Assembly (NCBI GenBank): GCA_002505585.1
Contig: DAVM01000021.1
Span: 11,660-75,659, forward strand
Source: Candidatus Woesearchaeota archaeon UBA489
GTDB lineage: Archaea > Nanobdellota > Nanobdellia > SCGC-AAA011-G17 > UBA489
Direction of reading: 5' to 3'
DNA length: 64,000 bases
Position 1 is the stretch's first letter; each line of letters opens with the position of its first letter. Made by a program: the position numbers and the translations under genes. Shown one piece after another: positions 1 to 55,066 of the stretch. The notes under the pieces are model-generated. The model ran no database searches. It worked only from the letters and a program-made list of their open reading frames with translations, and was not told the DNA's origin.

Positions 1-562
1 AAACAAATCAATATTTGGTCTTGACGTTGATACTGTTTGTCCACTAACACCTCTAGAAGAACCAGGAGTATGTATTTTAAAAAATAAAGGAGATTCAATA
101 AACCTTACAACATTTCCAATACAAACAGCAGGATATTATTATCTCTTAACTAAAACAGATAACATAGGACTGCCACTCAATTCTATAACTGAAACACTTA
201 CAGCAACAATAGCAGGTGAAACAGGTACACCACAAGTAAAACCTATAGCCTTACCCTATTACGATCTTACTGATCTCTATGTCTTTGCAGGAGGAACAGG
301 CTCAGATATTCTTCATTATTTTAACGCAGGAGTGAATATAATTACTTTTACCAATAATCATAACGAACCCATTACGCTAGAATGGTTTAAAGTACTAGGT
401 GACGACTCTTACGCACTAGAACATGACATAACCACACCAGACAATAGATTTGTAGGAACAGGAGAAAGAATAGTAGCAGTAGCTAACGGAAACACTTTTC
501 ATGGATTTTATAATGTGAGGTATATGATATGGCTCAAATCAACAATTTCAACTGCAACTTAA
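1..562 (+). CDS. C-terminal part of a secreted/surface protein; the 5' end lies outside the window. The ORF is open in frame 2 from the window edge, and its stop overlaps the next start as TAATG.
   Basis: No stop codons in frame 2 from nt 2 to the TAA at 560-562. G/T/N-rich extracellular-like composition. The listed 76-aa ORF 332..562 is only its last internal Met. Confidence 0.5.
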   Translation, partial: NKSIFGLDVDTVCPLTPLEEPGVCILKNKGDSINLTTFPIQTAGYYYLLTKTDNIGLPLNSITETLTATIAGETGTPQVKPIALPYYDLTDLYVFAGGTGSDILHYFNAGVNIITFTNNHNEPITLEWFKVLGDDSYALEHDITTPDNRFVGTGERIVAVANGNTFHGFYNVRYMIWLKSTISTAT

Positions 563-1584
563 TGCCAAGAAAAACCAAAGGAGTACTTCTCACTTTAGGA
601 ATCACTTTCTTAGCATTAGTAGTACTCACCTTAGCAACACTTATTCTCCGCAATGCAGAAACATCAGAAGAAAGATTAGTAGAACTAGCAGGTATAGATA
701 GACTTTATAACTTAGGAAGCTCCACAGAAAGAAGCTTAGCAGAATCACTCTATCCTTATACAGGAGTTTATTTTAACATAACAAATGACACCATTATAAT
801 AGCAAGACAAATGCATCCATGGCCAGATAATACTCTATGGAGTATAGACTGGAGATTCTTTGATTACAAACTAACACTAATGACTATCTTCCCAAATTAT
901 ATCAACTCAGTAAGTAAAGGAGTTAATAGTCTTAACAAACTAGATGCTGCATTCAATAGAATAATGCTTCTTTTTGAACCAAGCGGTTCAATGTACTGGT
1001 TAAGTACAATTCCTTTTCATGTGGAAGATTATGGTTATCCAAATTTAACAATAAATAATGAAACATTTGAAAATTCAAATGTTTATTCAACATATCAATT
1101 TTTTGTTCCTCCAGCAGTAACAGACCCTACTTATCCAACCTCTTACACTTTTTACTTCAAAAGCACTGACGCAAACCCAATTATTAATTGGAGCAGGAAA
1201 GCAACTGAAGGTAATCCAAAAGTTAATCTAAAAATAATTGTTGAAGGACTTAATGGGTATCATGACGAAGTATCTGCTCTTGTTCCTCTAAATGCAACAG
1301 GAACACTATTTCCTCATGTTATCTATCTAGATAATCTTACAGCAGAAGCGAAATTACCACCACCTTTTAATATTGAAAAAACAGAAAAAAAACCCTCTAT
1401 TAGGTTTTATGAATCAAACAAAACAAATAACCTCTTTGCAATCTTTAATTTTGATGTAGAACTCTACACAGAAGTAATAATAAAACTTAATACAACTTAT
1501 ACAGAAGCATATACTTTACAAGAAATAACCACACAATTACCAGGATTTGGTATGAAACGCACAAGATTAGCTCGTTATGCTTAA
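562..1584 (+). CDS. Putative pilin-like / surface glycoprotein with a class-III-like (prepilin-type) signal peptide, positioned upstream of the pilus assembly genes.
   Basis: N-terminus MPRKTKG followed by a ~22-aa hydrophobic stretch, which is a KG-then-hydrophobic prepilin-like motif. At least 8 N-x-S/T sequons (NITNDT, NLTINNET, NWS, NATG, NLTA, NKTNN, NTTYT). The start ATG at 562 overlaps the upstream stop as TAATG; the alternative upstream ATG at 529 is less likely. Confidence 0.5.
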   Translation: MPRKTKGVLLTLGITFLALVVLTLATLILRNAETSEERLVELAGIDRLYNLGSSTERSLAESLYPYTGVYFNITNDTIIIARQMHPWPDNTLWSIDWRFFDYKLTLMTIFPNYINSVSKGVNSLNKLDAAFNRIMLLFEPSGSMYWLSTIPFHVEDYGYPNLTINNETFENSNVYSTYQFFVPPAVTDPTYPTSYTFYFKSTDANPIINWSRKATEGNPKVNLKIIVEGLNGYHDEVSALVPLNATGTLFPHVIYLDNLTAEAKLPPPFNIEKTEKKPSIRFYESNKTNNLFAIFNFDVELYTEVIIKLNTTYTEAYTLQEITTQLPGFGMKRTRLARYA

Positions 1585-1657
1585 TCACTACGCTAAAAGT
1601 GTAACTATTGATGAAGTAAAACAAGCATTAATAAAGACTTAAAGAGGTATTCAAACT

Positions 1658-3175
1658 ATGTATATGGCAGTTATTTTCAGAGGTATTTTCTGGTTAGGCA
1701 TAATTATATCTCTACTCTCTTTATTTGTCCATATAGATGCATTCTTAGCAGTATTAATCCTAGGAACTCTTTGCATACTCTACTCACTATATGAACAACA
1801 CCGTATCAAATCCATCCAAACAATTTCAACACCACAAACAAAACCAACACTACAACCACAAAAAACAGTAGCAAAAACACTCCGTCTACCAGCAAAAACA
1901 ACACAAAAACCGCTCAAAAAAACTCATGCTTCATTTTTCACAAAAGTTCTACAATTTTTCAAAAGAAAAAAACAACCAAAACAAGAAATGATTAAACATG
2001 ACTTCATAAAACACACACCACAATTTGAAAAAATGAAAAAACTCTTCCAAGAAACAGTAACACCAAATAAACCACTTACAAAAGAAACAAAACAACCTTA
2101 TAACTTAAAACAAATAGTAGCAAAAAAATTCACAAAAACACCTAACCAAAAACAAACACAATTCTTTCCTTGGGAAAAAGAAGAACACTACATTCCAACA
2201 GGAGCAGACCACCTACAACCAATAGACCTAGAGAGAGATGAAATAGCACAACAAAAAGATGAAAGATACACAACAGTTCCAATAGGAACAATACAAAAAA
2301 CAAAAGCAACACCAACAACAGAAAGATTATTGGCAACACCAAAAATAGGACTCTTAAAAAAACTCCTCTCTTCGAAGATAACATCAACAAAACAACCCTT
2401 AATAACACCAAACTTAGGGTCAATTAAAGAAATTACTTTACCAAAAGGAGAACCAACACTACAACCAAAAGCAAAAGTAGCTCCATTACCAAAAGAAGGC
2501 ATACAACAGATAGTACACCAAAAAACAACAACAAAAGAAAAAGACTTAGAACAACTCAAAAAATACATTAGAGAATCACAAAAACAAAACTATCCAATAG
2601 AACACATCAAAGCAGCAGTAACAAAAGCAGGCTGGCCAAAAGAAATGATAACACAAGCATTTAAAGCAGAAACAATAACAACCAAAAAGAAAAAATTCAT
2701 AATCCTAGGAGTCATGTTCCTTGTTCTAATACTACTCTTAATAGTTCTAAACACAATGGACCTCTTACTCTTAGATTATCTCTTTGAAACAATACAACAC
2801 GCAAGCATGGGCTTCTACATAGGAGCTAGTGTAGTATTCTTACTCATTATAGGAATTATAATCTTTAAAACAAAAAATATTCTTCAAGAGAAAAAAACAC
2901 ATCATAAAGAAGAAGAAACAAAACATGTACAAGAAATAAAAACAGAACTAGAAGCAAGCAAAGAAGGATTTGAAACAGACTTTGACAGACTCTACAAACT
3001 CATAGAAGAAAAAAAGAAACTAACATTAAGAGAAATAGCAGCAGGCTTTGGCATAAAAAGAAGCAAAGCAGAAGAATGGGGAAAAATATTAAAAGAACAA
3101 GGACTTATAGAATTAAACTATCCAGCAGTAGGAGAACCAGAATTACAATGGAAAAAATTGATGAGTACAAAATAA
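1658..3175 (+). CDS. Lys/Thr/Gln-rich polytopic membrane protein with low-complexity K-T-P-Q repeats and a C-terminal wHTH-like segment; function unknown.
   Basis: N-terminal TM helices and a second TM cluster near aa 350-400. Long low-complexity KTKPTLQPQKT-type stretch. Lies immediately upstream of, and overlaps, the FlaI-like ATPase gene. Confidence 0.45.
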   Translation: MYMAVIFRGIFWLGIIISLLSLFVHIDAFLAVLILGTLCILYSLYEQHRIKSIQTISTPQTKPTLQPQKTVAKTLRLPAKTTQKPLKKTHASFFTKVLQFFKRKKQPKQEMIKHDFIKHTPQFEKMKKLFQETVTPNKPLTKETKQPYNLKQIVAKKFTKTPNQKQTQFFPWEKEEHYIPTGADHLQPIDLERDEIAQQKDERYTTVPIGTIQKTKATPTTERLLATPKIGLLKKLLSSKITSTKQPLITPNLGSIKEITLPKGEPTLQPKAKVAPLPKEGIQQIVHQKTTTKEKDLEQLKKYIRESQKQNYPIEHIKAAVTKAGWPKEMITQAFKAETITTKKKKFIILGVMFLVLILLLIVLNTMDLLLLDYLFETIQHASMGFYIGASVVFLLIIGIIIFKTKNILQEKKTHHKEEETKHVQEIKTELEASKEGFETDFDRLYKLIEEKKKLTLREIAAGFGIKRSKAEEWGKILKEQGLIELNYPAVGEPELQWKKLMSTK

Positions 3176-4626
3176 AAGCAGACGACTTAATCATTCCAGT
3201 AGCAATACTAGGAGGAAAAGGCATAACAAAACAGTACCACGTCTATATACCAACAATAGCACCAGGAACAAAAGCATTAATGGACTACATAAAACATGGA
3301 CTAGTATCAGAAGTAGCAATAAGCACAAAAGAAATCCTAGACCCAAAAGCAATAAACATACTCAAAGGAAAATTTACTAAAAGAGCAAAAATCTTAATAC
3401 AAGACAAACTACCAAATATTTCACAAGACACAGCAATACTCTTAATAAACATTTTAATGCAAGAAATGTTAGGACTAGGAGACATAGAATACTTATTAGC
3501 AGACGAAAATTTAGAAGAAATAGTAATAACTTCATCAAAGGAACCAATAAGAATCTACCACAAAAAACATGGATGGCTAGAAACAAACATAGCAATAGAA
3601 AACGAAGAAAAAATACTAAATTATGCAAACATCATAGGAAGAAGAGTAGGAAGACAAATCACTACACTAAGTCCACTATTAGATGCACACTTAGTAACAG
3701 GAGACAGAGCAAATGCAGTATTATTTCCCATATGTACAAAAGGACACACCATTACTATCAGAAGATTTGCGAGAGATCCTTGGACTCTAACAGACTTTAT
3801 CAAAAATAAAACAATCAACTCAAAATTATTAGCACTCATATGGCTAGCAATACAATACGAAATGAATGTATTAATAAGTGGAGGAACAGCAAGCGGAAAA
3901 ACAAGTTTCTTGAATATTTGCATGCCCTTTATCCCTAGTAATCACAGAATAGTAAGCATAGAAGATACAAGAGAATTACAACTCCCAAAATACCTCTATT
4001 GGTGCCCACTCACAGTAAGACAACCAAACCCAGAAGGAAAAGGAGAAGTAAACATGCTTGACTTACTCATTAACTCCCTACGTATGAGACCTGACAGGAT
4101 AATATTAGGAGAAATGAGAAGAAAAGACCAAGCAGCAGTACTATTCGAAGCAATGCACACAGGACACTCAGTATGTGCAACAGTACACGCAGACTCAGTA
4201 GCAGAAACCATAGAAAGACTAGTTAATCCACCCATAGAAGTACCAAAAAATCTTCTTTTAGGAGTAAATTTAAATGTAGTAATGTTTAGAGACAGAAGGA
4301 GAGGATTAAGAAGAGTGTTCCAAATAGGAGAATTCTTACCAACAATGGAAGAAGGAACAACCAATATTAAACCACACATCCTTTACAGATGGAAACCAGC
4401 AACAGACGAAATGGTAGAACACTCAACATCAGCAAGACTTTTTGAAGAATTAAGCAGACATACAGGAATGACCTTAAGCCAAATAGAAAAAGATTTGATG
4501 AAGAAAAAAGCTATACTCGATTGGATGGTTAAAAACAACATAAGACATGTTGATCAAGTAGGAGAACTCATCAAGAACTATTACTTAGATCCTGACTCAA
4601 TACTTGAGAAAGTAGGAGGGGTTTAA
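3148..4626 (+). CDS. Type II/IV secretion-system ATPase of the FlaI/TadA/VirB11 superfamily; the pilus or archaellum-type assembly ATPase.
   Basis: Walker A LISGGTASGKTSFLN, Asp box IVSIEDTRELQL, Walker B/His box RPDRIILGEMRRKD...HTGHSVCATVHA. The likely start is MEKIDEYKIK at 3148, internal to listed ORF 3076..4626. Confidence 0.85.
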   Translation: MEKIDEYKIKADDLIIPVAILGGKGITKQYHVYIPTIAPGTKALMDYIKHGLVSEVAISTKEILDPKAINILKGKFTKRAKILIQDKLPNISQDTAILLINILMQEMLGLGDIEYLLADENLEEIVITSSKEPIRIYHKKHGWLETNIAIENEEKILNYANIIGRRVGRQITTLSPLLDAHLVTGDRANAVLFPICTKGHTITIRRFARDPWTLTDFIKNKTINSKLLALIWLAIQYEMNVLISGGTASGKTSFLNICMPFIPSNHRIVSIEDTRELQLPKYLYWCPLTVRQPNPEGKGEVNMLDLLINSLRMRPDRIILGEMRRKDQAAVLFEAMHTGHSVCATVHADSVAETIERLVNPPIEVPKNLLLGVNLNVVMFRDRRRGLRRVFQIGEFLPTMEEGTTNIKPHILYRWKPATDEMVEHSTSARLFEELSRHTGMTLSQIEKDLMKKKAILDWMVKNNIRHVDQVGELIKNYYLDPDSILEKVGGV

Positions 4627-5505
4627 ATGATAAAAATACCATTTGCTTTTCTTCCACCTAAACTTCTTTATAAATATTCTAAACTTTTTTATGGAATAGC
4701 ACAAAGATTAGAAAAAAGATTCAATTTTTTAACATTACACTTAGAACAAACAGAAGCACACATCAAACCAATAGAATACATAAGTATGTGTTTAGCATCA
4801 CTCACCATATTCTTTGTTTTCATGTTATTTGTAGCTTTAATGGTAGCAACATTTGACATACCATTTCTCATAGGACTCTTAGGAGCAATACTAGTAAGTT
4901 TCTTTGTTTTTTTACAACAAATGGCCTACCCAAAACTAGTAGCCTCAAGAAGAATCAAAGGTATAGAGATAAACTTGTTACCAGCACTCCAAGACATGTA
5001 CATACAACTCAACTCAGGAGTACCACTCTTTAACATACTCATGAACATCTCAACTAGCGATTACGGAGGAGTTTCACTAGAATTTAGTAAAGCAGTGAGA
5101 GAAATAAACGCAGGAAGATCAAACCTAGAAGTGTTTGAACTTATGGCAATCAGAAACCCTAGCATACTTTTTAGAAGAGCACTCTGGCAACTTGCAAGTG
5201 GTATGAAAGAAGGATCAGACATTTCCACACTCATTCACGAAGTAATACAATCAATAGCAGACGAACAAGTCATGCAAATACAAAGATATGGTGGACAACT
5301 AAGCCCACTAGCACTCTTTTATATGCTTATAGCAGTAATTGCACCATCACTAGGCATAACCTTCATCATTATCCTATCATCATTTATAGCACTATCAGAA
5401 TTAGCAACAAAAGCAATCTTTTACGGACTCTTAATAGTAACCATATTTTTCCAACTCATGTTCTTAGGAATGATTAAAACAAGAAGACCAACATTAATGA
5501 ACTAA
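4627..5505 (+). CDS. TadC/FlaJ-like polytopic membrane protein (T2SS-F domain), first half of a split pilus platform.
   Basis: T2SSF-like segment LPALQDMYIQLNSGVPLFNILMNIS...AVREINAGRSNLEVFELMA flanked by TM helices. SD-like GGAGGG lies 8 nt upstream. Directly follows the ATPase gene. Confidence 0.75.
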   Translation: MIKIPFAFLPPKLLYKYSKLFYGIAQRLEKRFNFLTLHLEQTEAHIKPIEYISMCLASLTIFFVFMLFVALMVATFDIPFLIGLLGAILVSFFVFLQQMAYPKLVASRRIKGIEINLLPALQDMYIQLNSGVPLFNILMNISTSDYGGVSLEFSKAVREINAGRSNLEVFELMAIRNPSILFRRALWQLASGMKEGSDISTLIHEVIQSIADEQVMQIQRYGGQLSPLALFYMLIAVIAPSLGITFIIILSSFIALSELATKAIFYGLLIVTIFFQLMFLGMIKTRRPTLMN

Positions 5506-5510
5506 AAACA

Positions 5511-6485
5511 ATGTACAAATTTATCTACAAGATTTATCCAAAGAAACTTAAAGAGAACTATCAAAAACTCTTAGATTATTGTACAATAGAAACACCACTC
5601 ATTAACTTCTTAGGACTCCATTTTATAATAGGACTAGTAACAGCAATACTTTTAGCACTTTTCTTAAAAATCTTCATTAATTTTCCCACAACAATCTTAT
5701 TCATTGGCTTTTTCTTCCTCTATCAAGGAATAATTTATGCATGGCTAGTCTTAACAGCAGACTCTAGAGCAAAATTCATAGAAACACTACTACCAGACGC
5801 ACTACAATTAATGGCTTCAAACTTAAGAGCAGGACTCACCATAGACAGAGCACTCCTTCTTTCAGCAAGACCAGAATTTGGAAGATTTAAAGATGAAATT
5901 AATAGAGTAGGAAAAGAACTAGCAACAGGAAAAGAACTAGGTGAAGCTTTAATGACCTTAAGCAGCAGAGTAAAATCAGAGAAATTAAAGAAAACATTTC
6001 AAATTATAGTATCTGCAATGGCATCAGGAGGAGAACTAGCAGATTTACTAGAACAAACAGCAAGCAATTTGAGACAACAAAAATTGATAGAACAAAGAAT
6101 AAGAGCAAGCGTTCTAGTTTATGTAATATTTATTTTTTCAGCAATAGGCTTTGGATCACCAATGCTGTTTGGATTAAGCACCTTCTTAGTAGAAGTCATC
6201 ACAGATGTTTTTAGCAAAGTACAACTTCCACCCGCAAGCACAACAGGAAGCATGCCCATATCATTCTCACAAGTATCCATCTCAGTAGATTTCATTAACA
6301 CCTACACTTTAATTTCATTAGTTTTAACATCAATAATGGGATCATTAATACTAGGACTTATAGCAAAAGGAAAAGAAAAAGAAGGAATAAAATACATGCC
6401 AATACTTATACTCTTAACTATATCACTCTTTTTTATAGTAAAATGGTTAATATCATCACTCTTAGGAGGATTATTTGACTTTTAA
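5511..6485 (+). CDS. TadC/FlaJ-like polytopic membrane protein (T2SS-F domain), second half of a split platform.
   Basis: Segment LPDALQLMASNLRAGLTIDRALLL...KELATGKELGEALMTLSSR flanked by TM helices. The two T2SSF domains are on separate genes. Confidence 0.75.
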   Translation: MYKFIYKIYPKKLKENYQKLLDYCTIETPLINFLGLHFIIGLVTAILLALFLKIFINFPTTILFIGFFFLYQGIIYAWLVLTADSRAKFIETLLPDALQLMASNLRAGLTIDRALLLSARPEFGRFKDEINRVGKELATGKELGEALMTLSSRVKSEKLKKTFQIIVSAMASGGELADLLEQTASNLRQQKLIEQRIRASVLVYVIFIFSAIGFGSPMLFGLSTFLVEVITDVFSKVQLPPASTTGSMPISFSQVSISVDFINTYTLISLVLTSIMGSLILGLIAKGKEKEGIKYMPILILLTISLFFIVKWLISSLLGGLFDF

Positions 6486-7130
6486 TCACTTCCTATAATT
6501 ACGTAATAATTTTCCTTTCTTCTTATTTAAAGAACTCTTCTTTTTCATAACTTTCTTAATCTTCTCAGACTGAGCAGAAAAACCAAACTCTTTCCCTATA
6601 GTATACACCTTATAAGAAGCCAATACAAAAGTAGTATACACAAAAATCATAATAATATAACGGACATATACTAACATTCCTTTTAATCCTAAAAGATTAA
6701 TTGCAGCATCCCAAATCGAAAAAATAAGCACAAAAAGTAAACAAAAAAAGAAACTAGTAGCATACTTCCTCATAGAAGAACCAGGAGACAAAACACTTCT
6801 AGCATTAAGAGTCCAAATAATAGCCCAAACACCAAAAGTTAAAGAAACTAAAGCACTAATTAATTCAATATCTTGCACATACTTAAACAAAGCCCCTAAA
6901 CCAACTAAAATAGCAATAACACTGATTAACTGCTTAAAAAAATGCTTTAAATCATCTTTATGCATAAAGAAAAATAAACAAAGAACTGCAACAATGAGTA
7001 CACCAATAAGAACATTTACTACACTCGAAGAAAAATAAAATTTTACAATAGTCTTACCAACCAACAACAAAACAACAACTAATAACAAACTAAAACACCA
7101 CACACCCAATTTACGATTAGTTTCTTTCAT
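6486..7130 (-). CDS. Polytopic membrane protein with a Lys-rich cytoplasmic tail; unknown function.
   Basis: Five to six predicted TM helices. Coding strand follows the host A-rich bias. Convergent with the pilus genes. Confidence 0.5.
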   Translation of the reverse strand: MKETNRKLGVWCFSLLLVVVLLLVGKTIVKFYFSSSVVNVLIGVLIVAVLCLFFFMHKDDLKHFFKQLISVIAILVGLGALFKYVQDIELISALVSLTFGVWAIIWTLNARSVLSPGSSMRKYATSFFFCLLFVLIFSIWDAAINLLGLKGMLVYVRYIIMIFVYTTFVLASYKVYTIGKEFGFSAQSEKIKKVMKKKSSLNKKKGKLLRNYRK

Positions 7131-7132: not shown

Positions 7133-7693
7133 TTATAACTCCAATAAGATATCACAAAACTGACTTAATTCATCCAATAACTCTTTATTTGAATCCTTCT
7201 CAAGAGAAACAATAATTCCCTTCACATTCCAAACACGCATCTTTCCAGATAAAAAATGAATAAACTTAGCAACAGTAGTAGGTTTATTATACACCAACAA
7301 AGTATCTAAACTATCAAAAAAAAGAAACTTTTTATCACCAGGAACAGCACGAACAGCCTGATCCATAGCAAGAGAAATATCGCTCAAATTATCAGGACTA
7401 CCAATAAACAAACACTTCTCAGTTTTTTTAACATCACCACCAGAAGTCTTAGTAACAGCATCAATAAAAATAATCATATCAGTATTAATACCTTTCTTCA
7501 CAAGAAAAGGTTGCATCACAGAAAAAGGCTTGTTTAAAGTAACATACACACCAGGAACCTCATCATCAACAGTCAGATACTTAATCATTTCAAGATTACT
7601 ATCTTGATATTTACTAGCAGTAACTTTAGCTAAAGCAACATAATTCTCGTTACCATTAAGAGACTCTTTTATTTTATTCCTAACCTCTTCCAT
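7133..7693 (-). CDS. Degenerate KaiC/RecA-like domain protein lacking a Walker A motif (DUF835-like).
   Basis: RecA-fold-like strand/helix pattern (MIIFIDAVTK, FLFFDSLDTLLVYN) but no GxxGxGKT. Divergent from the KaiC-like pair and shares an intergenic region containing two opposed TATA boxes. Confidence 0.5.
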   Translation of the reverse strand: MEEVRNKIKESLNGNENYVALAKVTASKYQDSNLEMIKYLTVDDEVPGVYVTLNKPFSVMQPFLVKKGINTDMIIFIDAVTKTSGGDVKKTEKCLFIGSPDNLSDISLAMDQAVRAVPGDKKFLFFDSLDTLLVYNKPTTVAKFIHFLSGKMRVWNVKGIIVSLEKDSNKELLDELSQFCDILLEL

Positions 7694-7784: not shown

Positions 7785-8486
7785 ATGGAAAAGATAAAAA
7801 CAGGTGTCCAAGGTCTAGACGAAGTATTAGAAGGAGGTATTCTTTCAACTAGCTCAGTACTCTTAGCAGGAGTACCAGGAACAGGAAAAACCCTCTTTGG
7901 CATGCAATACATCTTACAAGGAGCCTTAGAAGGACAACCAGGACTCTTTATAAGTTATGAAGAACTAGAATCTACTATAGTAAAACATGCACATAATTTT
8001 GGACTAGACTTCACAACACACATAAAAAAAGGACTCATAACAGTAGTAAACCAAGAAATAAGCGGAAAACTCATAAGCTTTAGAGCACTTCTAGACTTAA
8101 TGCAAAAAAGAAACATCAAAAGAGTTTTCTTAGACTCCATAACACTCTTTGAATATATCATCTTTGACAAAAAAGCAGACTTTAGGAAAGAAGTACTAGA
8201 ATTCACAAGAGCACTAAAAAAATTAGGCATAACACTTCTCGCAACATCAGAAAAAAAAGAAACAGACATAGATAATATAGCTTATAACCCCGAAGACTTT
8301 TTATTTGAAGGACTAATACACTTAACAAAAATAAGAAAAGGAGCATCATTCGAAAGATGTCTTTCAGTAGCAAAAATGAGAGGACAATCACATATGATGG
8401 GAATTTATCCCTTCACAATAAATGAAGAAGGAATAATTATTTACCCAAAACAAATACCTTTCTCACTAATAGAAAAAGATTCATGA
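7785..8486 (+). CDS. KaiC/RadB-like RecA-superfamily ATPase.
   Basis: Walker A LLAGVPGTGKTLFGMQYI, then GLFISYEE, and Walker B-like VFLDSI. TATA box at 7751-7758. Confidence 0.75.
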   Translation: MEKIKTGVQGLDEVLEGGILSTSSVLLAGVPGTGKTLFGMQYILQGALEGQPGLFISYEELESTIVKHAHNFGLDFTTHIKKGLITVVNQEISGKLISFRALLDLMQKRNIKRVFLDSITLFEYIIFDKKADFRKEVLEFTRALKKLGITLLATSEKKETDIDNIAYNPEDFLFEGLIHLTKIRKGASFERCLSVAKMRGQSHMMGIYPFTINEEGIIIYPKQIPFSLIEKDS

Positions 8487-9190
8487 CAACAATGGTAGAC
8501 AACACAAGAATAGCATCAGGAATACCAGGACTAGACCCACTAATAGAAGGAGGGTTTAAAACAGGAAGCATAAATTTAGTAGTAGGAACAGCAGGATCAG
8601 GAAAAACAACATTCGCAATGCAATTCTTAATAGATGGACTAGCAAAAGGAGAACCAAGCATCTTTGTAACATTTGAAGAAAAGAAAAAAAAGCTCTACGA
8701 AGACATGAAATCATTCGGATGGGACTTAATTAAATTTGAAGAACAAGGACTCTTTAAATTCTTAGAATACACACCAGAACAAATCAAAAGAGTACTAGTA
8801 GAAGGAGGAGGAACCATAGACTCTTTAATAACAGAAATGAACGTAAAAAGACTAGTAATAGACAGTATAAGCTCATTCGCACTCCTCTTCCAAGATCAAT
8901 TAACCCAAAAAGAATCATCACTAGCACTCTTCGACCTCATCAACAGCTGGGGATGTACAGCAGTACTAACATCACAAGCAGTACAAATAGGGCCAGATGA
9001 TTTAACCTCACAACTCCAATTTGAAGTAGACGCAATAATTTTATTGTATCACTTTAAGAAAAAAGGAATAAGACAAAGAGCATTAGAAGTACTCAAAATG
9101 AGAGGAACACAAACAACAGAAAAAACAGTTAGATTAATCATCAACACTAAAGGTATAAGTGTCAATGCAACAGAGATAGTTAGTCTGTAG
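8483..9190 (+). CDS. KaiC/RadB-like RecA-superfamily ATPase, tandem paralog of the previous gene.
   Basis: Walker A LVVGTAGSGKTTFAMQFL, then SIFVTFEE and LVIDSI. 4-nt ATGA overlap with the upstream gene. Confidence 0.75.
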   Translation: MTTMVDNTRIASGIPGLDPLIEGGFKTGSINLVVGTAGSGKTTFAMQFLIDGLAKGEPSIFVTFEEKKKKLYEDMKSFGWDLIKFEEQGLFKFLEYTPEQIKRVLVEGGGTIDSLITEMNVKRLVIDSISSFALLFQDQLTQKESSLALFDLINSWGCTAVLTSQAVQIGPDDLTSQLQFEVDAIILLYHFKKKGIRQRALEVLKMRGTQTTEKTVRLIINTKGISVNATEIVSL

Positions 9191-10160
9191 TCTGTTTCTT
9201 AATAGCAAGGAAAATATACAAAAGTGTAACAAGAACTAAAATTATTAATACACCTAAAAATAATTTAGGAGCTAAAGAAGATTTTTGCTCACCACACTTT
9301 TTCCAAGAACAAACTAAAGACAAACACTCAAAATCTTCCGCACAAGAAACCTCATCACTCTTCTGAGCTAACCACTCACCTGAAGAAGCAACACAAAACT
9401 TTCCACTATCAATAGTTCCATCAACAACACACTGCTCTTTTAAACTACAACCAACCTCTTTAGAAACACTACAACGTTTAGGTGATCCAGAACAAGTATG
9501 AGTAGTACAAGCATCATTATCTTCACAATCCTTGTTAGTTTGACACTTATCAACAGTTTTACAATCAGCATCTTCTGCAGTATCACAAGCTTCAGGACAA
9601 CAAGCATCACCAGCCTTACACACTGCAATTGCAGTATGCACACACTTACTAGGATAATTAGCATCATCACAAGTATCAATAGTGCAAGAATTATCATCAT
9701 TACAATCTGCAGCAGCATTACATTCATTATTTGCCTGAGAACTAGTAATATTTTCAATACAACGATTTCTTGAACAAGCAAACTTTGAACTCAAACACCC
9801 ACAATCAGTACAACAAACAACTTGATCTTCACCAGCACCACAAACCTTATCACCACAAATAATATTTACAGTAATATCCAAAATTGCTTTAGGAGGAGAA
9901 CGAGAAAAACCAACAACATAAATAAACACACCATTAACCATCTTAGATCTATTATCTTTAATATTTTCAGTTACTCCATCAACATCAACATTTATGCTAT
10001 CCCTTACAATACCAAGAACAGAAATATTTTTTCCACTCAAGACTTTATTACCAGGAATATCTAAAATAACCTTCTCTTGAGCAGCAGAAACAGTTAGAAC
10101 TAAAAAACTTAGACAGCATAAAGCATAAACTATTTGGAGAACTCTTTTACTCATAACCAT
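9180..10160 (-). CDS. Cysteine-rich secreted protein with a signal peptide and a C-terminal TM anchor.
   Basis: N-terminal signal peptide (LQIVYALCCLSFLVLTVSAA) and a C-terminal hydrophobic anchor plus KKQTTD tail. About 50 Cys in 326 aa in CxxDxxC-type repeats. Confidence 0.6.
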   Translation of the reverse strand: MVMSKRVLQIVYALCCLSFLVLTVSAAQEKVILDIPGNKVLSGKNISVLGIVRDSINVDVDGVTENIKDNRSKMVNGVFIYVVGFSRSPPKAILDITVNIICGDKVCGAGEDQVVCCTDCGCLSSKFACSRNRCIENITSSQANNECNAAADCNDDNSCTIDTCDDANYPSKCVHTAIAVCKAGDACCPEACDTAEDADCKTVDKCQTNKDCEDNDACTTHTCSGSPKRCSVSKEVGCSLKEQCVVDGTIDSGKFCVASSGEWLAQKSDEVSCAEDFECLSLVCSWKKCGEQKSSLAPKLFLGVLIILVLVTLLYIFLAIKKQTTD

Positions 10161-11166: not shown

Positions 11167-11655
11167 ATGGTGCACATAAAAAAGAGCAGACATAGCATAA
11201 AACAAGCAAAAAGAGAAGCTAGACAAAAACAGCAAGTAGAAGAACAAACACAGAGACATGCTGTGACAAAAAAGAGGAAAATAAAACATTACAGCATATT
11301 TTCAGTCATAGGAATCATAGTACTTATTGCATTATTCTTCCTTTTCTCTTCAATTGAAGACAAACCAGGACCACATGATGCATTTGCCCAATGTTTAACA
11401 GAAGAAGGAGCAACCATGTACGGAGCATTCTGGTGTCCACACTGTGCAGAACAAAAAAAGATGTTTGGTAAATCATTTAAGTATGTGGACTATGTAGAAT
11501 GTGACCCTAAAGGAAAGAATGCAAATCCTGAAAAATGTAATCAAGCAGGAATAACTTCCCATCCAACATGGATAATAAAAGGAGAAAAGTACAATGGACA
11601 ACAACCACTTCCAATATTAGCAGAAGCGACAAGTTGTGAGTTAACAAAAACTTAG
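11167..11655 (+). CDS. Membrane-anchored thioredoxin-fold thiol:disulfide oxidoreductase (DsbA-like, CPHC active site).
   Basis: N-terminal TM helix followed by WCPHC and a thioredoxin-fold pattern (second Cys pair CDP...C). Upstream of VKOR. Confidence 0.7.
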   Translation: MVHIKKSRHSIKQAKREARQKQQVEEQTQRHAVTKKRKIKHYSIFSVIGIIVLIALFFLFSSIEDKPGPHDAFAQCLTEEGATMYGAFWCPHCAEQKKMFGKSFKYVDYVECDPKGKNANPEKCNQAGITSHPTWIIKGEKYNGQQPLPILAEATSCELTKT

Positions 11656-11772: not shown

Positions 11773-12303
11773 ATGAATGAACACAAGAGGCTATATAAGA
11801 TACAAGTAATTTCTATAATAGCAATACTTATCTCAATATTTTTATCATTTCATTATTATCAACCTCAAACTAGTAATTTTTGTCCTTTTGGAGAATCATT
11901 TAATTGTAATGTAATCAATAAAAGTCCTTATGCAACCATAGATGGTATTTTTTATTTTTTAACAACTGACATGAATCTAGATGTTCCTTTAGTGAAGATA
12001 CCATTACCAAATGCCACAGTAACTCTTGTAATCTTCTTAATCATTTTTGGAGCAGCATATAGTATAGGAAAAAATAAACCATTCTGGGGAATGAAAAGAG
12101 AAAAATTATTACAATTACTAAGAGTGTTGTTATACATAAGCTTAGCATATGCGATTTATTTAGCGTACGTAGAAGCATTTATTCTATTAAATTACTGCAT
12201 TTTCTGTATTTTATTAGACGTTTGTATAATTGCAGCATTATGGTTAGTGATAGGCATAAAGAAGAAAGCGAAGAAAAAAGTAAAGAGAAGAAAAAGACGA
12301 TAA
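11773..12303 (+). CDS. Vitamin K epoxide reductase (VKOR) family membrane protein; a DsbB-analogous disulfide generator.
   Basis: Four to five TM helices. Loop Cys pair FCPFGESFNC with 7-residue spacing as in VKORC1. TM CxxC motif NYCIFC (compare human TCIVC). Confidence 0.7.
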   Translation: MNEHKRLYKIQVISIIAILISIFLSFHYYQPQTSNFCPFGESFNCNVINKSPYATIDGIFYFLTTDMNLDVPLVKIPLPNATVTLVIFLIIFGAAYSIGKNKPFWGMKREKLLQLLRVLLYISLAYAIYLAYVEAFILLNYCIFCILLDVCIIAALWLVIGIKKKAKKKVKRRKRR

Positions 12304-17811: not shown

Positions 17812-18495
17812 ATGGCACAAAAAGAAAGACCATTTTTGAACTTACTCATAAACATTGTTATACCAGTATTTATTCTCCTTAAGTTAAGTAAAGAACAATA
17901 CTTAGGACCATTCTATGGACTCATAGTTGCGTTAGCATTTCCAATACTTTATGGATTGTATGAAGTAGTGAAAGAAAAAAAATATAACTTTTTATCAATA
18001 CTAGGAGTAGTAAGTATACTTTTAACAGGAGGCATAGGATTGTTGCAACTAAATAATAATTGGTTAGCAGCAAAAGAAGCAGGAGTACCACTATTAATCG
18101 CAATAGCAATATTAGTTTCATTAAAAACAAACTACCCACTAGTAAAAAAATTAATCTACAATGACAGCATCATGAATATAGCAAAGATAGAAGAAGCACT
18201 AGAGGAAAAGAAGAGTAAAGAACAACTAGAAAAACAACTCAAAAAAGCATCTTATTACGTAGCAGGAACATTTGTCTTTTCAGCATTCTTAAACTATATT
18301 CTAGCGAAAATTATAGTGGTAAGTGAACCAGGAAGCGTAGCATACAATACAGAACTAGGAAGAATGACGGCACTAAGTTTTCCAGTCATAGCACTACCAT
18401 CAACAATATTATTAGTCATAGTGATCTTCTCTTTAGTTAAGAAAATAAAGCAATTAACAGGATTAGAAATGGAAGAAGTGTTTAAAGCAAAATAA
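17812..18495 (+). CDS. Polytopic membrane protein of unknown function.
   Basis: Six TM helices with a central amphipathic KEQLEKQLKK segment. TATA box at 17781-17791. Confidence 0.5.
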   Translation: MAQKERPFLNLLINIVIPVFILLKLSKEQYLGPFYGLIVALAFPILYGLYEVVKEKKYNFLSILGVVSILLTGGIGLLQLNNNWLAAKEAGVPLLIAIAILVSLKTNYPLVKKLIYNDSIMNIAKIEEALEEKKSKEQLEKQLKKASYYVAGTFVFSAFLNYILAKIIVVSEPGSVAYNTELGRMTALSFPVIALPSTILLVIVIFSLVKKIKQLTGLEMEEVFKAK

Positions 18496-24694: not shown

Positions 24695-26503
24695 TTACCC
24701 AAAATATTTTTCTCTATAAAACCTAATAAGTTCTTCAACAGCAGGAATCACTTCAGGACTACCAATACCAACTTTTAATTTCTTTTGTACTTTTTCCAAA
24801 GTATCAGCACCTTCTAAGACAGCTTCTTCAATATCTTTATCAGTAACTTTAGTAGTTGGATCAACAATTCGAGCAGATTCAACAATAATACGATCAGTTT
24901 GCTCAGATTTACGAAAAAAATCGTTAATAGCAGAACGTAAAGCTTTGTCTCCTAAAACAGAACAATGGAACTTCTTAGCTGGAAGACCACCTAAACGCTC
25001 CATAATATCTTGAGGTTTTAATACTAAAGCATCATTAATCTTCATACCACCATTTTCTGAAATCATAACAGATAACATAGAAGTAGAGCCAATAGCTGAA
25101 GCACAACCAAAAGTTTGCCATTTACATTCTGTAATTCTATCTTGTTCTTTATCAACCTTAATCCACATCTTCATAGCATCACCACAATTATGAAGAGTGA
25201 AAGCATCACTAACATAAGAATGTGTTTTAGCTACTTCTAGATTATGTAAACGTCCACTAAATTGAGATTTTTCAACTTTCCTAATAGGCATATAAAAGTA
25301 GTTTTTGTCAAACCAAGAATGTTTAGCAATCCTTGATACTTTAGGATAAGAAAACTTAACTTTTAGTAGCTTACTCATTTTCTTTAAAGCTTCGTAATCA
25401 CCAACATGAATTCTATAACACTCAGCATGATTTACTCCTTTCACAACTTTAGCTTCTTCAAAATAAATAGAATGTTCAATCTTTTGACGAAGTAATAACA
25501 CTTTTAATTCTTGAGCTAAAATCCAAGAAGCAGTAGCATATTCAGCTCTAGGTTTTTTCTTTTCTAAATCAATATATCCATCACTATGCCAAACACCATA
25601 CAAAAAACTTTTTTGTAACTCAGGTTCTAAAAAAATGATAAATTCTGGGATTTTCTTGTTATAAGAAAGAGTGCCACAATTTTTTCTTAAATATCTAGCA
25701 AGATGAATACTGTTTGTAGTTACATCAATCCTATTTCTATCTTCTCTTTTTTTAACATAAGTATCTAACTTGAATATCTTTTTAAGAAGTTTGATAACGT
25801 CCTCAACAAATTTTTCTTCAGTGATGCCGAAGGTAAAACCAATTTCTCCTTTACGCGTATGTCCTTCGGCAACAAAATAACCAAATAAACGTAAAAGATC
25901 TTTAGTTACTTTAATCTTTGTAGGGATTGTCTTACTTTTATAATCAAAGTTTTTCTTAGTAACAGGAATTTCAATATATTCAACTTCTTTTACTTCTTTA
26001 GGAATAGGATAAGGACAAATATCTCCTTTTTGTAAGTTACCAGCATGCACCCAAGAGACAGGAAGCTTTCTTTTGTATTTATTATGTGCCCAAGAACCTT
26101 TTTCAGGGATTTGCATAGCATAGACTAAATGATCAGGAGTTAGAACAACATCTCCAAATTGGTTTTTTACTTTGACTATTTTTCCATCATACTTGGGATG
26201 ATAGAATTTAGTTATTTTATTATAAGAACCATCATGAGATAATACTTTGTGTCCTTTAGTAAGATTATCCATTTGTTGCACATCAAAATTAACATGAATC
26301 AAAGTTTTTCCTTCAGTACAAGCAGGACTTCCAACCATACCAATACCATCAGCTTTGTAAGTAGCAACTTCTTCTTCAGTTTTGAAAATATTTTTAGGAT
26401 TAAAAAAGTGTTCACGAACTGTTGGAGTGTAGAACCATTTTCTTGCATCTACCATAGACTTTACATCCTCATGAGTTACAGGTTGTATTTTTGGTTTTTC
26501 CAT
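24695..26503 (-). CDS. iscU: IscU/NifU-like Fe-S scaffold interrupted by a 378-aa intein.
   Basis: Exteins carry the IscU motifs (GMVGSPA | CGDAMKMW..., then ...HCSVLGD). The intein starts with Cys and ends TLHN followed by Cys. Confidence 0.85.
   Translation of the reverse strand: MEKPKIQPVTHEDVKSMVDARKWFYTPTVREHFFNPKNIFKTEEEVATYKADGIGMVGSPACTEGKTLIHVNFDVQQMDNLTKGHKVLSHDGSYNKITKFYHPKYDGKIVKVKNQFGDVVLTPDHLVYAMQIPEKGSWAHNKYKRKLPVSWVHAGNLQKGDICPYPIPKEVKEVEYIEIPVTKKNFDYKSKTIPTKIKVTKDLLRLFGYFVAEGHTRKGEIGFTFGITEEKFVEDVIKLLKKIFKLDTYVKKREDRNRIDVTTNSIHLARYLRKNCGTLSYNKKIPEFIIFLEPELQKSFLYGVWHSDGYIDLEKKKPRAEYATASWILAQELKVLLLRQKIEHSIYFEEAKVVKGVNHAECYRIHVGDYEALKKMSKLLKVKFSYPKVSRIAKHSWFDKNYFYMPIRKVEKSQFSGRLHNLEVAKTHSYVSDAFTLHNCGDAMKMWIKVDKEQDRITECKWQTFGCASAIGSTSMLSVMISENGGMKINDALVLKPQDIMERLGGLPAKKFHCSVLGDKALRSAINDFFRKSEQTDRIIVESARIVDPTTKVTDKDIEEAVLEGADTLEKVQKKLKVGIGSPEVIPAVEELIRFYREKYFG
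25187..26320 (-). mobile_element. Intein with a LAGLIDADG homing-endonuclease domain, inserted in iscU immediately before the cluster-ligand Cys of the ACGD motif.
   Basis: Block A CTEGKTLIHVN. Block B TPDHLVY. LAGLIDADG-like LFGYFVAEGH and LYGVWHSDGYID. Blocks F/G ...HSYVSDAFTLHN followed by +1 Cys. Confidence 0.8.
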
Positions 26504-27678
26504 TATGCGTACAACTCCGGTCTAACATTTACAGGTGAAATAGCTCTTAATTTTTTAATAACATCTGGTAAAACTTTTAGTACGTGATCCATACCTTCTT
26601 TAGTAGAAGACTTTCCTAAAGTAAAACGAACACTTCCATGAGCAGTCTCAAAAGGAACACCTAAAGCTAAAATAACATGAGAAGGATCTAAAGTTTTAGA
26701 AGTACAAGCAGAACCTGTTGAAACACAAATACCATATTCATTTAAGTATAAAATTAAAGCTTCACCTTCAATATCCATGAAAGAAATATTAACATTATTA
26801 GGTAAACGTTTAGTTGCATGACCATTTAATCTAGTCTTAGGAATAGTTTTGAGAATGTTAGCAATTAAATAATCACGAAGCCTAGTCAACCTAATATTTT
26901 CAGTTTCTTTCTCTTCTTGAGCAAGTTCTAAAGCTTTAGTCAAACCTCTAATAGCAGGAACATCTTCAGTGCCAGAACGCAAATCCCTCTCTTGTCCACC
27001 ACCATGAATAACAGGCTTTAATTGCGTACCTTGCTTCACAAACAAAGCACCAACACCCTTAGGACCATAGAGTTTACTTCCATTAATAGACAATAAATCA
27101 ACATTTAAATTTTCAACATTAATATCTAAAGCACCAGCAGCCTGACAAGCATCAGAATGAAATAAAACCTTTTTAGCCTTACAAATTTCTCCAATCTCTT
27201 TAATAGGATTAATAGTACCAATTTCATTATTAGCATACATAATAGAAACTAAAATAGTCTTATCAGTAATAGCAGCTTCAACATCTTTAGGATTAACAAT
27301 ACCATCCTTACCAACAGGCAAGAAAGTAACATTATACCCTTCTTTTTGTAAAAATTCACAAGAATGAAGAACAGCATGATGCTCAGCTTTCGTAGTAATA
27401 ATATGATTCCCTTTATGTTTGTAACCTTTAGCAACACCAAGAATAGCTAAGTTAACACTTTCAGTACCAGAACCAGTAAAAATAACTTCCAAAGGTTTGG
27501 AATGAAAAATAGTAGCAACTCTAGCGCGAGCATCTTCAATAGCATCTTTAGCTTCTAAACCAAAAGAATGAAAACTTCCAGGATTACCAAAAACTTCAGA
27601 ATAATATTTATCCATCTCTTGTTTTACTCTAGGATCAACAGGAGTAGTAGCAGCGTGGTCTAAGTAAACAGTTTTCAT
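26503..27678 (-). CDS. iscS: Cysteine desulfurase (IscS/NifS class).
   Basis: TVYLDHAATTPVDPRV N-terminus. PLP-Lys region SINGSKLYGPKGVGALFV. Active-site loop SGSACTS. Start chosen at MKTVYLDH. Confidence 0.85.
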   Translation of the reverse strand: MKTVYLDHAATTPVDPRVKQEMDKYYSEVFGNPGSFHSFGLEAKDAIEDARARVATIFHSKPLEVIFTGSGTESVNLAILGVAKGYKHKGNHIITTKAEHHAVLHSCEFLQKEGYNVTFLPVGKDGIVNPKDVEAAITDKTILVSIMYANNEIGTINPIKEIGEICKAKKVLFHSDACQAAGALDINVENLNVDLLSINGSKLYGPKGVGALFVKQGTQLKPVIHGGGQERDLRSGTEDVPAIRGLTKALELAQEEKETENIRLTRLRDYLIANILKTIPKTRLNGHATKRLPNNVNISFMDIEGEALILYLNEYGICVSTGSACTSKTLDPSHVILALGVPFETAHGSVRFTLGKSSTKEGMDHVLKVLPDVIKKLRAISPVNVRPELYA

Positions 27679-28058
27679 TTTACTACACCACCAAAACAAC
27701 CAATTAAATTAGTATGACACTCATCAGGAATTTGAGAAATTTTTTTATGTACTTCACAAATAACACCAGAAGTTCTAGCCAGATGGATTAACCTTTGTGT
27801 TTCACGTAATAAAGAAATCTTATCATTAATCAAGATAGTAGATTTTTTCACTTCTTTTTTTAACTCTTCAGGAAGAGAAATTTGAGCACCACGTTTTTTA
27901 TTAATATATTGACTAACAGTAGCATCTTCAATATGAAGGATTTGAGCAATCTCCTTTTGCTTTAAACCTTGTTCTTTGAAAGCAAGAGCTAATTGACGCT
28001 TAAGAGCAGGAATAATATAATGTACTTCAATTTCTTGGGGATAAAGCAATTGTTTCAT
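27675..28058 (-). CDS. Small HTH transcription regulator with a C-terminal Cys/His cluster, first gene of the isc-like operon.
   Basis: HTH-like KQKEIAQILHIEDATVSQYINKK. C-terminal CEVHKK...DECHTNLIGC. Overlaps iscS by 4 nt. Start chosen at the internal Met at 28058. Confidence 0.55.
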   Translation of the reverse strand: MKQLLYPQEIEVHYIIPALKRQLALAFKEQGLKQKEIAQILHIEDATVSQYINKKRGAQISLPEELKKEVKKSTILINDKISLLRETQRLIHLARTSGVICEVHKKISQIPDECHTNLIGCFGGVVK

Positions 28059-42251: not shown

Positions 42252-42339
42252 AGGGGTCATAGCATAATCCGGTTAGTGTTGCCGGCTCCAAAAAATTTAG
42301 GAGTCACCGGTAGATCCAGGTTCGAATCCTGGTGACCCC
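42252..42339 (+). tRNA. tRNA-Trp (anticodon CCA) with a ~14-nt intron at the canonical 37/38 position.
   Basis: Acceptor GGGGTCA / TGACCCC with discriminator A. T-arm CCAGG-TTCGAAT-CCTGG. Anticodon stem GCCGG / CCGGT. Loop CTCCAAA. Intron at 42291-42304. Confidence 0.8.
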
Positions 42340-42391
42340 ATATAATCCTTCTAGAAATATTTATAAACCTACACTATTCCTTAGTAGTCCT

Positions 42392-42979
42392 ATGAAACTT
42401 ATTTGGGGGCTTATGAATTTAACTATTCTTTTAGCCCTAGCTGTACAAGCAGAACCTTTAACTTCAAAACCCATCTACAAAGTTGAGGTAAAAGAACTCT
42501 TGATAAACCACTATGATTTACAGTGTAAAGAGAGTATTACTTCAATAATCAATCTCCATAATAGAGGTAATTTAGATGCAACAGTATCAGTAGAACTAGT
42601 CAATAGTAAGCTTGGAGTAGCAGAAGTCTCTCCTAGTATTAGAATTCAAGCAGGAAGACAACAAGGCATAATTGTACCTTTCAAAATAGCAAAAGATGTA
42701 TATGGAGCTTATGAATTTGAGATTAGACTCTATACAGAAGAAGGGATCAAAAGATTGTTTCAAACTGTCCATTTTCAAGAGTGTGATAAACCAAAAATCA
42801 CTTCTTTGATTAGAGATAGTAAACCATTACAACAAACTCAACAAGAGGAAGAAGAGAAACAATCTCCTCCATTACCTTTCCATTTCTTAATAGGGATAGG
42901 TCTTTTAGGAGTGCTAGCACTACTTTCAGCACTCTTTATCATCCATTCTTCACTTCAAAAAACACAACCAGAAACATGA
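42392..42979 (+). CDS. Secreted protein with a signal peptide and a C-terminal TM anchor.
   Basis: The listed start at 42332 lies inside the tRNA, so the start is assigned to MKLIWGLMNLTILLALAVQA. C-terminal helix IGIGLLGVLALLSALFII. Confidence 0.5.
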   Translation: MKLIWGLMNLTILLALAVQAEPLTSKPIYKVEVKELLINHYDLQCKESITSIINLHNRGNLDATVSVELVNSKLGVAEVSPSIRIQAGRQQGIIVPFKIAKDVYGAYEFEIRLYTEEGIKRLFQTVHFQECDKPKITSLIRDSKPLQQTQQEEEEKQSPPLPFHFLIGIGLLGVLALLSALFIIHSSLQKTQPET

Positions 42980-45113: not shown

Positions 45114-45287
45114 TTGTATAAAAAATACATTCTAAAAAGAGGAAAGAGAATAGGACCATATTTCTACACTAGTGCTCGCTTAAAAGATGGCAGAGTAAAA
45201 ACAGTCTACTTAGGTAGTAATGAAAAACTTGCACGTCAGAAAGAAAGAACACAACAACTCATTAAGGTGGTGAAAAGGAAAGGATGA
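45114..45287 (+). CDS. Putative small basic protein (TTG start) translationally coupled to the giant gene by an ATGA overlap.
   Basis: 57 codons, K/R-rich (LYKKYILKRGKRIGPYFY...). The stop TGA overlaps the ATG of the 2355-aa ORF. Confidence 0.3.
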   Translation: MYKKYILKRGKRIGPYFYTSARLKDGRVKTVYLGSNEKLARQKERTQQLIKVVKRKG

Positions 45288-55004: not shown

Positions 55005-55066
55005 TCTTTTAAACTCTCTATTTTTTAAAGAAATTAGTAAAAAAGCTTAAATACCTAAAAAGAGTT

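Follow-up and report, generated by a model that had tools for sequence, protein, structure and literature searches.

A probable Epd/Tad-like type IV pilus operon with a split platform in a marine Woesearchaeal archaeon

Described relatives and the conserved core

Within the type IV filament superfamily, the defining mark of Epd-like and Tad systems is a platform that fission has divided between two one-domain genes (PMC6668835), and a split platform is likewise common in the euryarchaeal clade-2 systems (PMC4858521). Conserved type IV pilus (T4P) loci have also been reported from cluster-2 DPANN archaea including Woesearchaeota, Pacearchaeota, Nanoarchaeota and others, where a CpaF-like ATPase, a TadC-like platform and PilA-like genes occur together with long-coiled-coil proteins and a P-loop NTPase (PMC11291902). 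Here we analyse a locus at the left end of a 64,000-nucleotide (nt) stretch of contig DAVM01000021.1 from Candidatus Woesearchaeota archaeon UBA489 (GCA_002505585.1), hereafter called the window. Its first 6,485 positions very probably hold the distal part, that is the downstream two-thirds, of a ten-gene archaeal T4P operon of the Epd/Tad-like kind.

Woesearchaeota of the sea are abundant and uncultured, and are presumed to live fixed to other cells, for which a pilus would be the most obvious means. The source organism is an ultra-small marine Woesearchaeal archaeon of the DPANN group, and its sample, taken from the mesopelagic at Tara station 039, belongs to the 0.1-0.22 µm size fraction, consistent with cells of that kind. 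In public pipelines the genes are annotated as K07332/K07333 (FlaI/FlaJ), archaellum names that mislead. We regard the locus as a system of a known kind, correctly identified, in a little-studied lineage, with novelty that might lie at most in lineage-specific accessory proteins. The understanding of type IV filaments is unchanged by it, since a split platform, KaiC neighbours and large minor pilins are already documented in archaea. What the locus offers is a complete and conserved parts list, which gives metatranscriptomics, heterologous expression and cryo-electron tomography something definite to aim at.

The left edge of the window cuts through the operon. A Tara Oceans contig (L001) that is 100% identical to the window across 15,505 nt reaches 5.4 kb further leftward, and the same sequence is found in the metagenome-assembled genome (MAG) GCA_002506165.1 by exact-protein match. 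On the upstream part of L001 lie five further genes of the same orientation, all of them with a class III signal. With these, ten genes span 9.2 kb from p136 to the second platform gene, in the order p136, p139, p324, p167, p295, p340, p505, ATPase, platform N-half and platform C-half. The first two overlap by 4 nt, gaps of 15 nt and 34 nt follow on either side of p324, p167 overlaps p295 by 10 nt, and p295 overlaps p340 by 1 nt in a TAATG at window positions 560-564. Further on, 73 nt separate p340 from p505, the end of p505 and the start of the ATPase gene share 28 nt, the ATPase stop codon is directly followed by the ATG of the N-half (gap 0 nt), and 5 nt lie between the two platform genes. 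A previous interpretation, made from the letters of the window and hereafter called the sequence-only reading, had proposed a single operon coupled by TAATG and ATGA junctions. All open reading frames (ORFs) that it named reappear in the ORF listing at the same coordinates, and the overlapping, closely spaced genes and the TAATG bear the proposal out. Its extent was drawn too short, as the operon continues left of the window, and the ATGA was misplaced: the sole one, at 8483-8486, lies between two KaiC-like genes and outside positions 1-6485. The functional unit probably reaches to about 9190 on the right, taking in the genes for a six-TM membrane protein, a KaiC-like pseudo-ATPase and the two KaiC-like ATPases, and about 2.7 kb left of the window. 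A sigma-70 promoter and terminator scan of the region, a method unsuited to an archaeon, found as many candidates as expected from shuffled sequence, and neither Rfam nor tandem-repeat scans there yielded anything relevant.

The arrangement is shared by relatives. The order of the ten genes is the same in eight related Woesearchaeota/Nanoarchaeota loci; seven come from a one-per-species genome set, the eighth from a metagenome contig. Conservation is strongest in the ATPase and the two platform halves and weakest in the pilins. Most of these loci also share their flanks, with a glutaredoxin gene on the opposite strand to the left and, to the right, genes for a six-transmembrane (six-TM) protein (-), a DUF7504 protein (-), two KaiC-like proteins, a Cys-rich protein (-) and CorA (-).

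The ATPase gene (3148-4626, +) encodes a 492-residue (aa) pilus assembly ATPase of the FlaI/TadA/GspE family (PF00437 T2SSE, 9.8e-34), with GGTASGKTS as Walker A and with the Asp box, Walker B and His box all present. The start at 3148 (MEKIDEY...) is kept in all orthologues, and those in the eight related loci match with E values of about 1e-250 to 1e-285. Among solved structures the best match is A. fulgidus GspE 2OAP (2.9e-68, 234 bits), followed by Sulfolobus FlaI (7e-52), Caulobacter CpaF (7e-45) and, far behind, VirB11 (1e-21, ~80 bits). The top NCBIfam match is FlaI, at 272 bits against an equivalog cut-off of 550, and the TadA and VirB11 models also score under their cut-offs. Taken together, the structural and NCBIfam scores place the protein in the archaeal pilus/archaellum/Tad branch without making it an archaellum equivalog. 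The FlaI/TadA-type assignment of the sequence-only reading therefore stands, and the enzyme groups with archaeal GspE, FlaI and CpaF rather than with the VirB11 or KaiC families.

Inteins were encountered in ATPase orthologues of three Woesearchaeota/Nanoarchaeota genomes (L009:6159-10289, L012:12973-16026 and L016:2555-7249). The interrupted ORFs, 1017-1564 aa long, hold one intein or two, with homing endonuclease domains of the LAGLIDADG type and Intein_splicing matches at 2e-48, 9e-21 and 5e-29. The copy in the window, at 492 aa, is intein-free.

Downstream of the ATPase, the platform is encoded in two pieces with one T2SSF domain each, namely the N-half (4627-5505, +; 292 aa; PF00482 1.2e-13) and the C-half (5511-6485, +; 324 aa; PF00482 1.6e-18). 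The N-half aligns to the ArlJ model at positions 5-248 of 555 and the C-half at positions 193-463 of 465; by this alignment, the pair is collinear with the N-terminal and C-terminal halves of two-domain platforms of the ArlJ/PilC type. The two are paralogues, with 24% identity over the T2SSF domain, and they are neighbours in each of the seven related loci whose sequence extends this far. Searched exhaustively with HMMER, 1.8 billion representatives yielded 1122 homologues of the N-half; among the best 150 of these, down to 27% identity, nearly all are 260-330 aa long and typically about 290, with one 706-aa exception that contains two matched stretches. A PDB sequence search with either half gave no match. 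We rejected a recent frameshift or pseudogene as the origin of the split, which is kept in all related loci and in the wider family. The split platform is the expected state and no anomaly. The sequence-only reading had thus recognized two separate T2SSF proteins correctly and erred in presenting them as a departure from the two-domain FlaJ, as they are the rule both among the best 150 homologues and in Epd-like and Tad systems.

In a distant relative (L018:4687-10354), 27% identical in its platform half, a ParA/MinD (TadZ-like) ATPase occurs together with a 730-aa ATPase. They are followed by two one-domain T2SSF genes, again N-then-C, and by a PF04021 pilin, so the collinear split extends well past the Woesearchaeal locus.

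Prepilins, the candidate tip pilin and the membrane protein p505

In Methanococcus maripaludis, the substrates of the peptidase EppA carry a leader that ends in Gly, followed by Gln at +1 and Glu at +5 (PMC3875500). We scanned all six frames of the 64 kb with a FlaFind-style pattern ([KRDE][GA][ALIFQMVED], then three small or hydrophobic positions followed by a hydrophobic 20-mer). Class III signals stand on six consecutive genes, p136 to p340, four and a half of which lie left of the window, so that the signal noted by the sequence-only reading upstream of the ATPase recurs through a whole series. With a slash at the predicted processing site, the N-termini of the four genes situated entirely on L001 read MVDKRG/QAGIEY (p136), ..NKKG/QISTE (p139), MHKKG/QLSYEY (p324, L001:3546-4520) and ..KKRG/QAAVTD (p167). 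Gln+1 and Glu+5 follow the Gly in p136, p139 and p324; p167 has G/Q with D6, and p295 has G/V with D6. The signal peptides of all six are kept in the related loci, with Gly or Ala at -1. Against PF04021 (Class_IIIsignal, formerly DUF361), p136 scores 5.5e-5 and 23.4 bits, just below the cut-off of 23.7, and the family matches just 4 of the 48 pilin-like orthologues at E<=0.01.

The ORF at the very edge of the window (2-562, +), whose frame is open at its left end, is incomplete: it is the C-terminal 186 aa of the prepilin-like, 295-aa p295. The complete protein starts at L001:5049 with MEINKLTKKG/VVFSLDAAIAV..., its signal peptide lying 326 nt left of the window. A profile search assigned it to no Pfam family, and its orthologues in seven related loci retain the motif K/R-G/[IVL][IV]F[AS]LD. 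The smallest pilin-like genes, p136 and p139, encode 136 and 139 aa and are likely candidates for the bulk (major) subunits; no smaller class III ORF of at least 40 aa occurs in the 64-kb window. p324, with 14 Cys and a Cys-rich C-terminal module, is likely an adhesin.

The last prepilin-like gene of the series, p340 (562-1584, +), encodes 340 aa beginning MPRKTKG/VLLTLGITFLALVV, where the part after the slash starts with VLLTLGITF. In the six frames of the 64 kb it is the sole credible ORF that combines the class III pattern with a hydrophobic stretch. The public gene call begins at an upstream ATG at 529; we prefer 562 because of the TAATG junction and because the orthologues begin at the equivalent Met. 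Its homologues comprise 18 matches, all in Woesearchaeota/Nanoarchaeota MAGs, and the full-length ones are mostly about 30% identical. Across 12 of them the first 60 residues are near-invariant ([KR]G-V-LLTLGITF...LRNAE.S..RL.EL), and the remainder is about 30% identical.

Many N-glycosylation sequons had been noted from the sequence, and p340 indeed has nine N-X-S/T sites where its composition would lead one to expect 4.4 ± 1.9 (p ~0.03). The site at 258 is kept in 12/12 homologues, those at 209 and 244 in 11/12, that at 75 in 10/12, and those at 70, 173 and 330 in 9/12. Seven positions are thus conserved in at least nine of twelve homologues that share a mere 30% or so of their residues, which provides good indirect evidence for N-glycosylation. 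An AlphaFold2 model built on a shallow alignment has a 62-residue N-terminal helix (6-67) followed by a beta-rich domain (predicted local distance difference test, pLDDT, 62.7; predicted template modelling score, pTM, 0.64), and with modest confidence suggests the 'lollipop' shape of a pilin. Alone among the six prepilins, p340 lacks an acidic residue at +5/+6, and its +1 residue is Val. In bacterial systems, a minor pilin without Glu5, of the GspK type, caps the tip. By this analogy p340 would be placed at the very tip. The sequence-only reading of a large glycosylated prepilin is therefore supported in its signal and its sequons; p340 is most likely a glycosylated minor or tip pilin rather than the main subunit.

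Between p340 and the ATPase lies p505 (1658-3175, +), a 505-aa membrane protein rich in Lys, Gln, Thr and Pro. Already described from the sequence as a Lys/Thr-rich membrane protein, it has 14.5% Lys, four hydrophobic segments and no sequon. Its layout comprises two TM hairpins, a disordered linker of about 230 residues, a small three-helix domain and a C-terminal winged-helix-like domain. In 14 homologues a conserved N-terminal TM hairpin is followed by a variable low-complexity linker, and a helical domain of about 45 residues, a KKKK motif, two further TM helices and a coiled segment are also kept. The C-terminal ~65 residues are near-invariant in the same set (ETDFDRLY..LT..E.A.GF....AEEWGKILKEQGLIEL.YP.VG..EL.WKK). 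AlphaFold2 models this domain (441-487) as helix-strand-helix-helix-wing with pLDDT 70-83, and its Pfam matches are to winged-helix families (TrmB, ArsR, IclR) below threshold (E ~0.01). A Foldseek search with the model returned nothing with E<1; the list consists mostly of winged-helix regulators, none of them significant. The positive-inside rule predicts a cytoplasmic location for every soluble part. With an acidic putative recognition helix and a gene translationally coupled to that of the ATPase, p505 would serve protein-protein docking or regulation rather than DNA binding, and we propose it as a membrane anchor or regulator of the ATPase.

Together, these parts suggest how the machine might work. 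Prepilins would enter the membrane, where a class III signal peptidase encoded elsewhere would remove the short basic leader after Gly or Ala. The hexameric ATPase would dock on a heteromeric platform of N-half and C-half, in the manner of TadB/TadC or EpdJ/EpdK, and ATP turnover would lift pilins from the membrane into a growing helical filament. p167, p295 and p340 could form a priming or tip complex with p340 at its very tip, p505 would tether or regulate the ATPase, and the adjacent KaiC-like proteins might act in an ArlH/FlaH-like regulatory role. The pilus likely serves attachment to surfaces or host cells.

Comparison with described systems and rival readings

As predicted from their sequences, the genes supply the core parts of the type IV filament superfamily: an ATPase, a T2SSF platform and class III pilins. 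The nearest characterized counterpart is the Epd pilus of M. maripaludis, which likewise has two adjacent one-T2SSF platform genes with one ATPase of the FlaI/TadA family, pilins whose short leader ends in Gly before Gln+1 and Glu+5 (the PF04021/DUF361 signature), larger minor pilins beside small ones, and KaiC/FlaH-like ATPase genes nearby. The two also differ. Here the ATPase gene stands before the N-half and C-half, whereas in Epd it stands after the platform genes; the smallest mature pilins have about 130 aa here and about 60 in Epd; no EppA-type peptidase lies in or near this locus; and p505, the DUF7504 pseudo-ATPase and the six-TM protein are extras undescribed for Epd.

Bacterial Tad/Flp (type IVc) systems share the split platform (TadB, TadC), a related ATPase (CpaF, as matched above), pseudopilins and a large N-terminally anchored protein (TadG-like). 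Tad pili are adhesive, as is proposed here. However, no Pfam or NCBIfam match to the RcpA secretin, TadD, TadZ, a Flp-motif pilin or TadV was found in the genes of the locus. In the bacterial systems the order is opposite to the collinear N-then-C arrangement of this locus, since TadB is similar to the C-half and TadC to the N-half (PMC6668835). Many loci of euryarchaeal clade 2 (Haloferax PilB3/PilB4-type), which includes some Nanoarchaea, have two tadC-like genes and KaiC-family ATPases nearby, and the clade has its own pilin set with an all-beta, FlaFind-positive minor pilin of 250-550 aa (arCOG02911; PMC4858521). The ATPase studied here is nearest to Archaeoglobus GspE 2OAP in the PDB; in contrast, the pilins of this locus carry the Glu+5 that is reported absent from Haloferax pilins (PMC3875500). 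As to the cluster-2 DPANN loci, the six-pilin series, the split platform and the winged helix-turn-helix protein of this locus are undescribed in that work (PMC11291902).

Several points weigh against an Epd/Tad-like pilus. The likeness to Epd, Tad and clade 2 is drawn from gene content and sequence features rather than from a tree. A short major pilin of about 60-75 aa characterizes Epd-like and Tad systems, and the smallest candidates here (136 and 139 aa, about 130 when mature) exceed the Epd/Flp major pilins in size. Major, minor and tip roles were assigned by analogy, from size, gene order and the +5 residue. The models of p340 and p505 are of low to moderate confidence, and neither matches a solved pilin significantly. 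No oligosaccharyltransferase (AglB) was found among the membrane ORFs of the window, and glycosylation is deduced from sequon conservation. The synteny of the KaiC-like genes could be unrelated to the pilus, as glutaredoxin and CorA are also syntenic. Finally, no peptidase of the A24/FlaK/PibD type is present in the 64-kb window, the 5.4 kb to its left, the 10 kb to its right or the flanks of the related loci, and prepilin processing is thus a prediction.

The absence of a prepilin peptidase from the window, already remarked upon from the sequence, was borne out by checking ORFs with at least three TM segments, none of which has a GxGD motif or an A24 Pfam match. Candidates were considered one at a time. 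The six-TM protein at 6486-7130 has one invariant Asp, no GxGD and no Pfam or PDB match, and was rejected as a cryptic peptidase; a second six-TM protein (17812-18495, 227 aa), considered as peptidase or AglB, has no assigned family and no GxGD motif; the other membrane ORFs are MFS, BacA/UppP, P-type ATPase and VKOR proteins. In archaea, the peptidase is often encoded elsewhere (PMC4858521), and here its gene probably lies elsewhere in the genome.

How else might the locus be read? The machine could be a short pseudopilus for protein secretion, bindosome-like surface display or DNA uptake, with no long adhesive pilus. The same core of ATPase, platform and pilins underlies all type IV filament functions (PMC6668835), and the ATPase is weakly similar to the BasE ATPase of the bindosome, yet its 122 bits fall far under the cut-off of 1000, and no substrate-binding protein with a class III signal occurs in the locus. 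DPANN archaea do rely on imported nucleotides and lipids, a point in favour of this reading. The Cys-rich, adhesin-like p324 and the glycosylated tip candidate speak instead for an exposed filament, and the characterized relatives Epd and Tad are adhesion pili (PMC6668835), so we hold this reading to be improbable. It is far less probable still that the locus encodes an archaellum, the rotary motility filament. The top NCBIfam matches, FlaI and ArlJ, the public K07332/K07333 labels and the presence of KaiC-like (ArlH-like) genes nearby all invite that reading, but FlaI falls well short of its cut-off as given above and ArlJ reaches 35 of 550 bits; Pfam and NCBIfam scans found no archaellin, ArlF, ArlG, ArlX or ArlCDE in the locus; the platform is split, unlike ArlJ; and the Gln+1/Glu+5 pilins are of the Epd type. 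A conjugation or type IV secretion system with a VirB11-type ATPase is effectively refuted by the scores: the VirB11 model does match the ATPase at 1.2e-43, but with 149 bits against a cut-off of 250 and with the structural gap described above, and the ATPase is flanked by T2SSF genes and prepilins, with no VirB4- or VirD4-like genes.

A more limited challenge concerns p340, and perhaps p295, which might be uncleaved bitopic proteins of the assembly machinery, comparable to PilN/PilO/GspM or TadG, with a signal anchor that mimics class III. Their +1 residues are Val or Ile where the four upstream pilins have Gln. p340 also lacks the Glu/Asp at +5/+6, its first 60 residues vary much less than the remainder, as would befit a contact with the machinery, and it has no significant structural match to solved pilins. 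We nevertheless consider this unlikely. The invariant K/R-G with its hydrophobic stretch fits the class III pattern, the predicted helix and beta domain correspond to pilin architecture, and tip pilins of the GspK type are likewise devoid of Glu5. Moreover, archaeal T4P loci have FlaFind-positive minor pilins of 250-550 aa (PMC4858521).

Neighbouring genes and further observations

Right of the platform, the six-TM protein (6486-7130, -; 214 aa) occurs in five of the seven related loci that extend past the platform and has no Pfam, NCBIfam or PDB match. It is followed by the DUF7504 pseudo-ATPase (7133-7693, -; 186 aa), which bears the signature of the KaiC/RecA fold (PF24336 3.1e-8, with a weak KaiC match) and an invariant PGVYVTLNKP in place of Walker A. 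Syntenic in five of the same seven loci, with 63-73% identity among orthologues, it is a candidate regulatory partner. Two single-domain KaiC-like ATPases come next, the first at 7785-8486 (+; 233 aa; PF06745 5.2e-54) with an intact Walker A (GVPGTGKT) and syntenic in four related loci, the second at 8483-9190 (+; 235 aa; PF06745 7e-54) with an intact P-loop and syntenic in five. They are 28% identical, their genes overlap in the ATGA at 8483-8486, and their similarity to ArlH/FlaH is weak, with scores far under the cut-off. Among the window ORFs scanned there is no ParA/MinD-like (TadZ-like) protein. KaiC-family ATPases near T4P loci are documented (PMC4858521), as is a FlaH-like secondary ATPase in Epd (PMC6668835), and a role of these two in the pilus is plausible from synteny.

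We tentatively suggest, while finding it rather doubtful, that p505, the DUF7504 and six-TM proteins and the KaiC-like pair form a lineage-specific docking and control module that gates the extension of a host-attachment pilus in place of TadZ/ArlX/ArlH, with p340 and p324 setting host specificity. If true, these two pilins would determine host choice in uncultured episymbionts.

Further right, a C-terminally anchored, Cys-rich protein of 326 aa (9180-10160, -) is syntenic in five of the eight relatives. A membrane-anchored thioredoxin-like protein with a WCPHC motif (11167-11655, +) and a VKOR homologue (11773-12303, +) are encoded 1-2 kb from the pilus locus and could be an extracytoplasmic disulfide-forming pair; Cys-rich exported proteins nearby are p324, with its 14 Cys, and the protein at 9180-10160.

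Other parts of the window and its surroundings hold further features. At 24695-26503 (-) lies the gene for a 602-aa NifU/IscU-like protein (NifU_N 5e-32, residues 438-534) with a LAGLIDADG_3 match (2e-14), probably an intein inside an Fe-S scaffold gene, which adjoins a gene for a class-V aminotransferase resembling cysteine desulfurases (26503-27699). A tRNA-Gly(GCC) at 42253-42340 (+) is, at 88 nt, long for its type; an intron is possible, and its 3' end runs into an ORF called at 42332-42979. Laminin_G_3 and Ig-like domains occur in a 2355-aa protein (45284-57577, +), which, with several smaller proteins after it that have weak matches to Ig-like or adhesin domains, may represent a second surface or adhesion gene cluster. 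About 6 kb past the right end of the window, on a 137-kb Tara scaffold (L019:3354-4010), a 218-aa GGDEF protein (PF00990 1e-28) retains the RYGGEEF active-site motif of a diguanylate-cyclase-like enzyme and occurs in three independent assemblies (L019, L020 and L021); to our knowledge, cyclic di-GMP signalling is essentially undescribed in Archaea.

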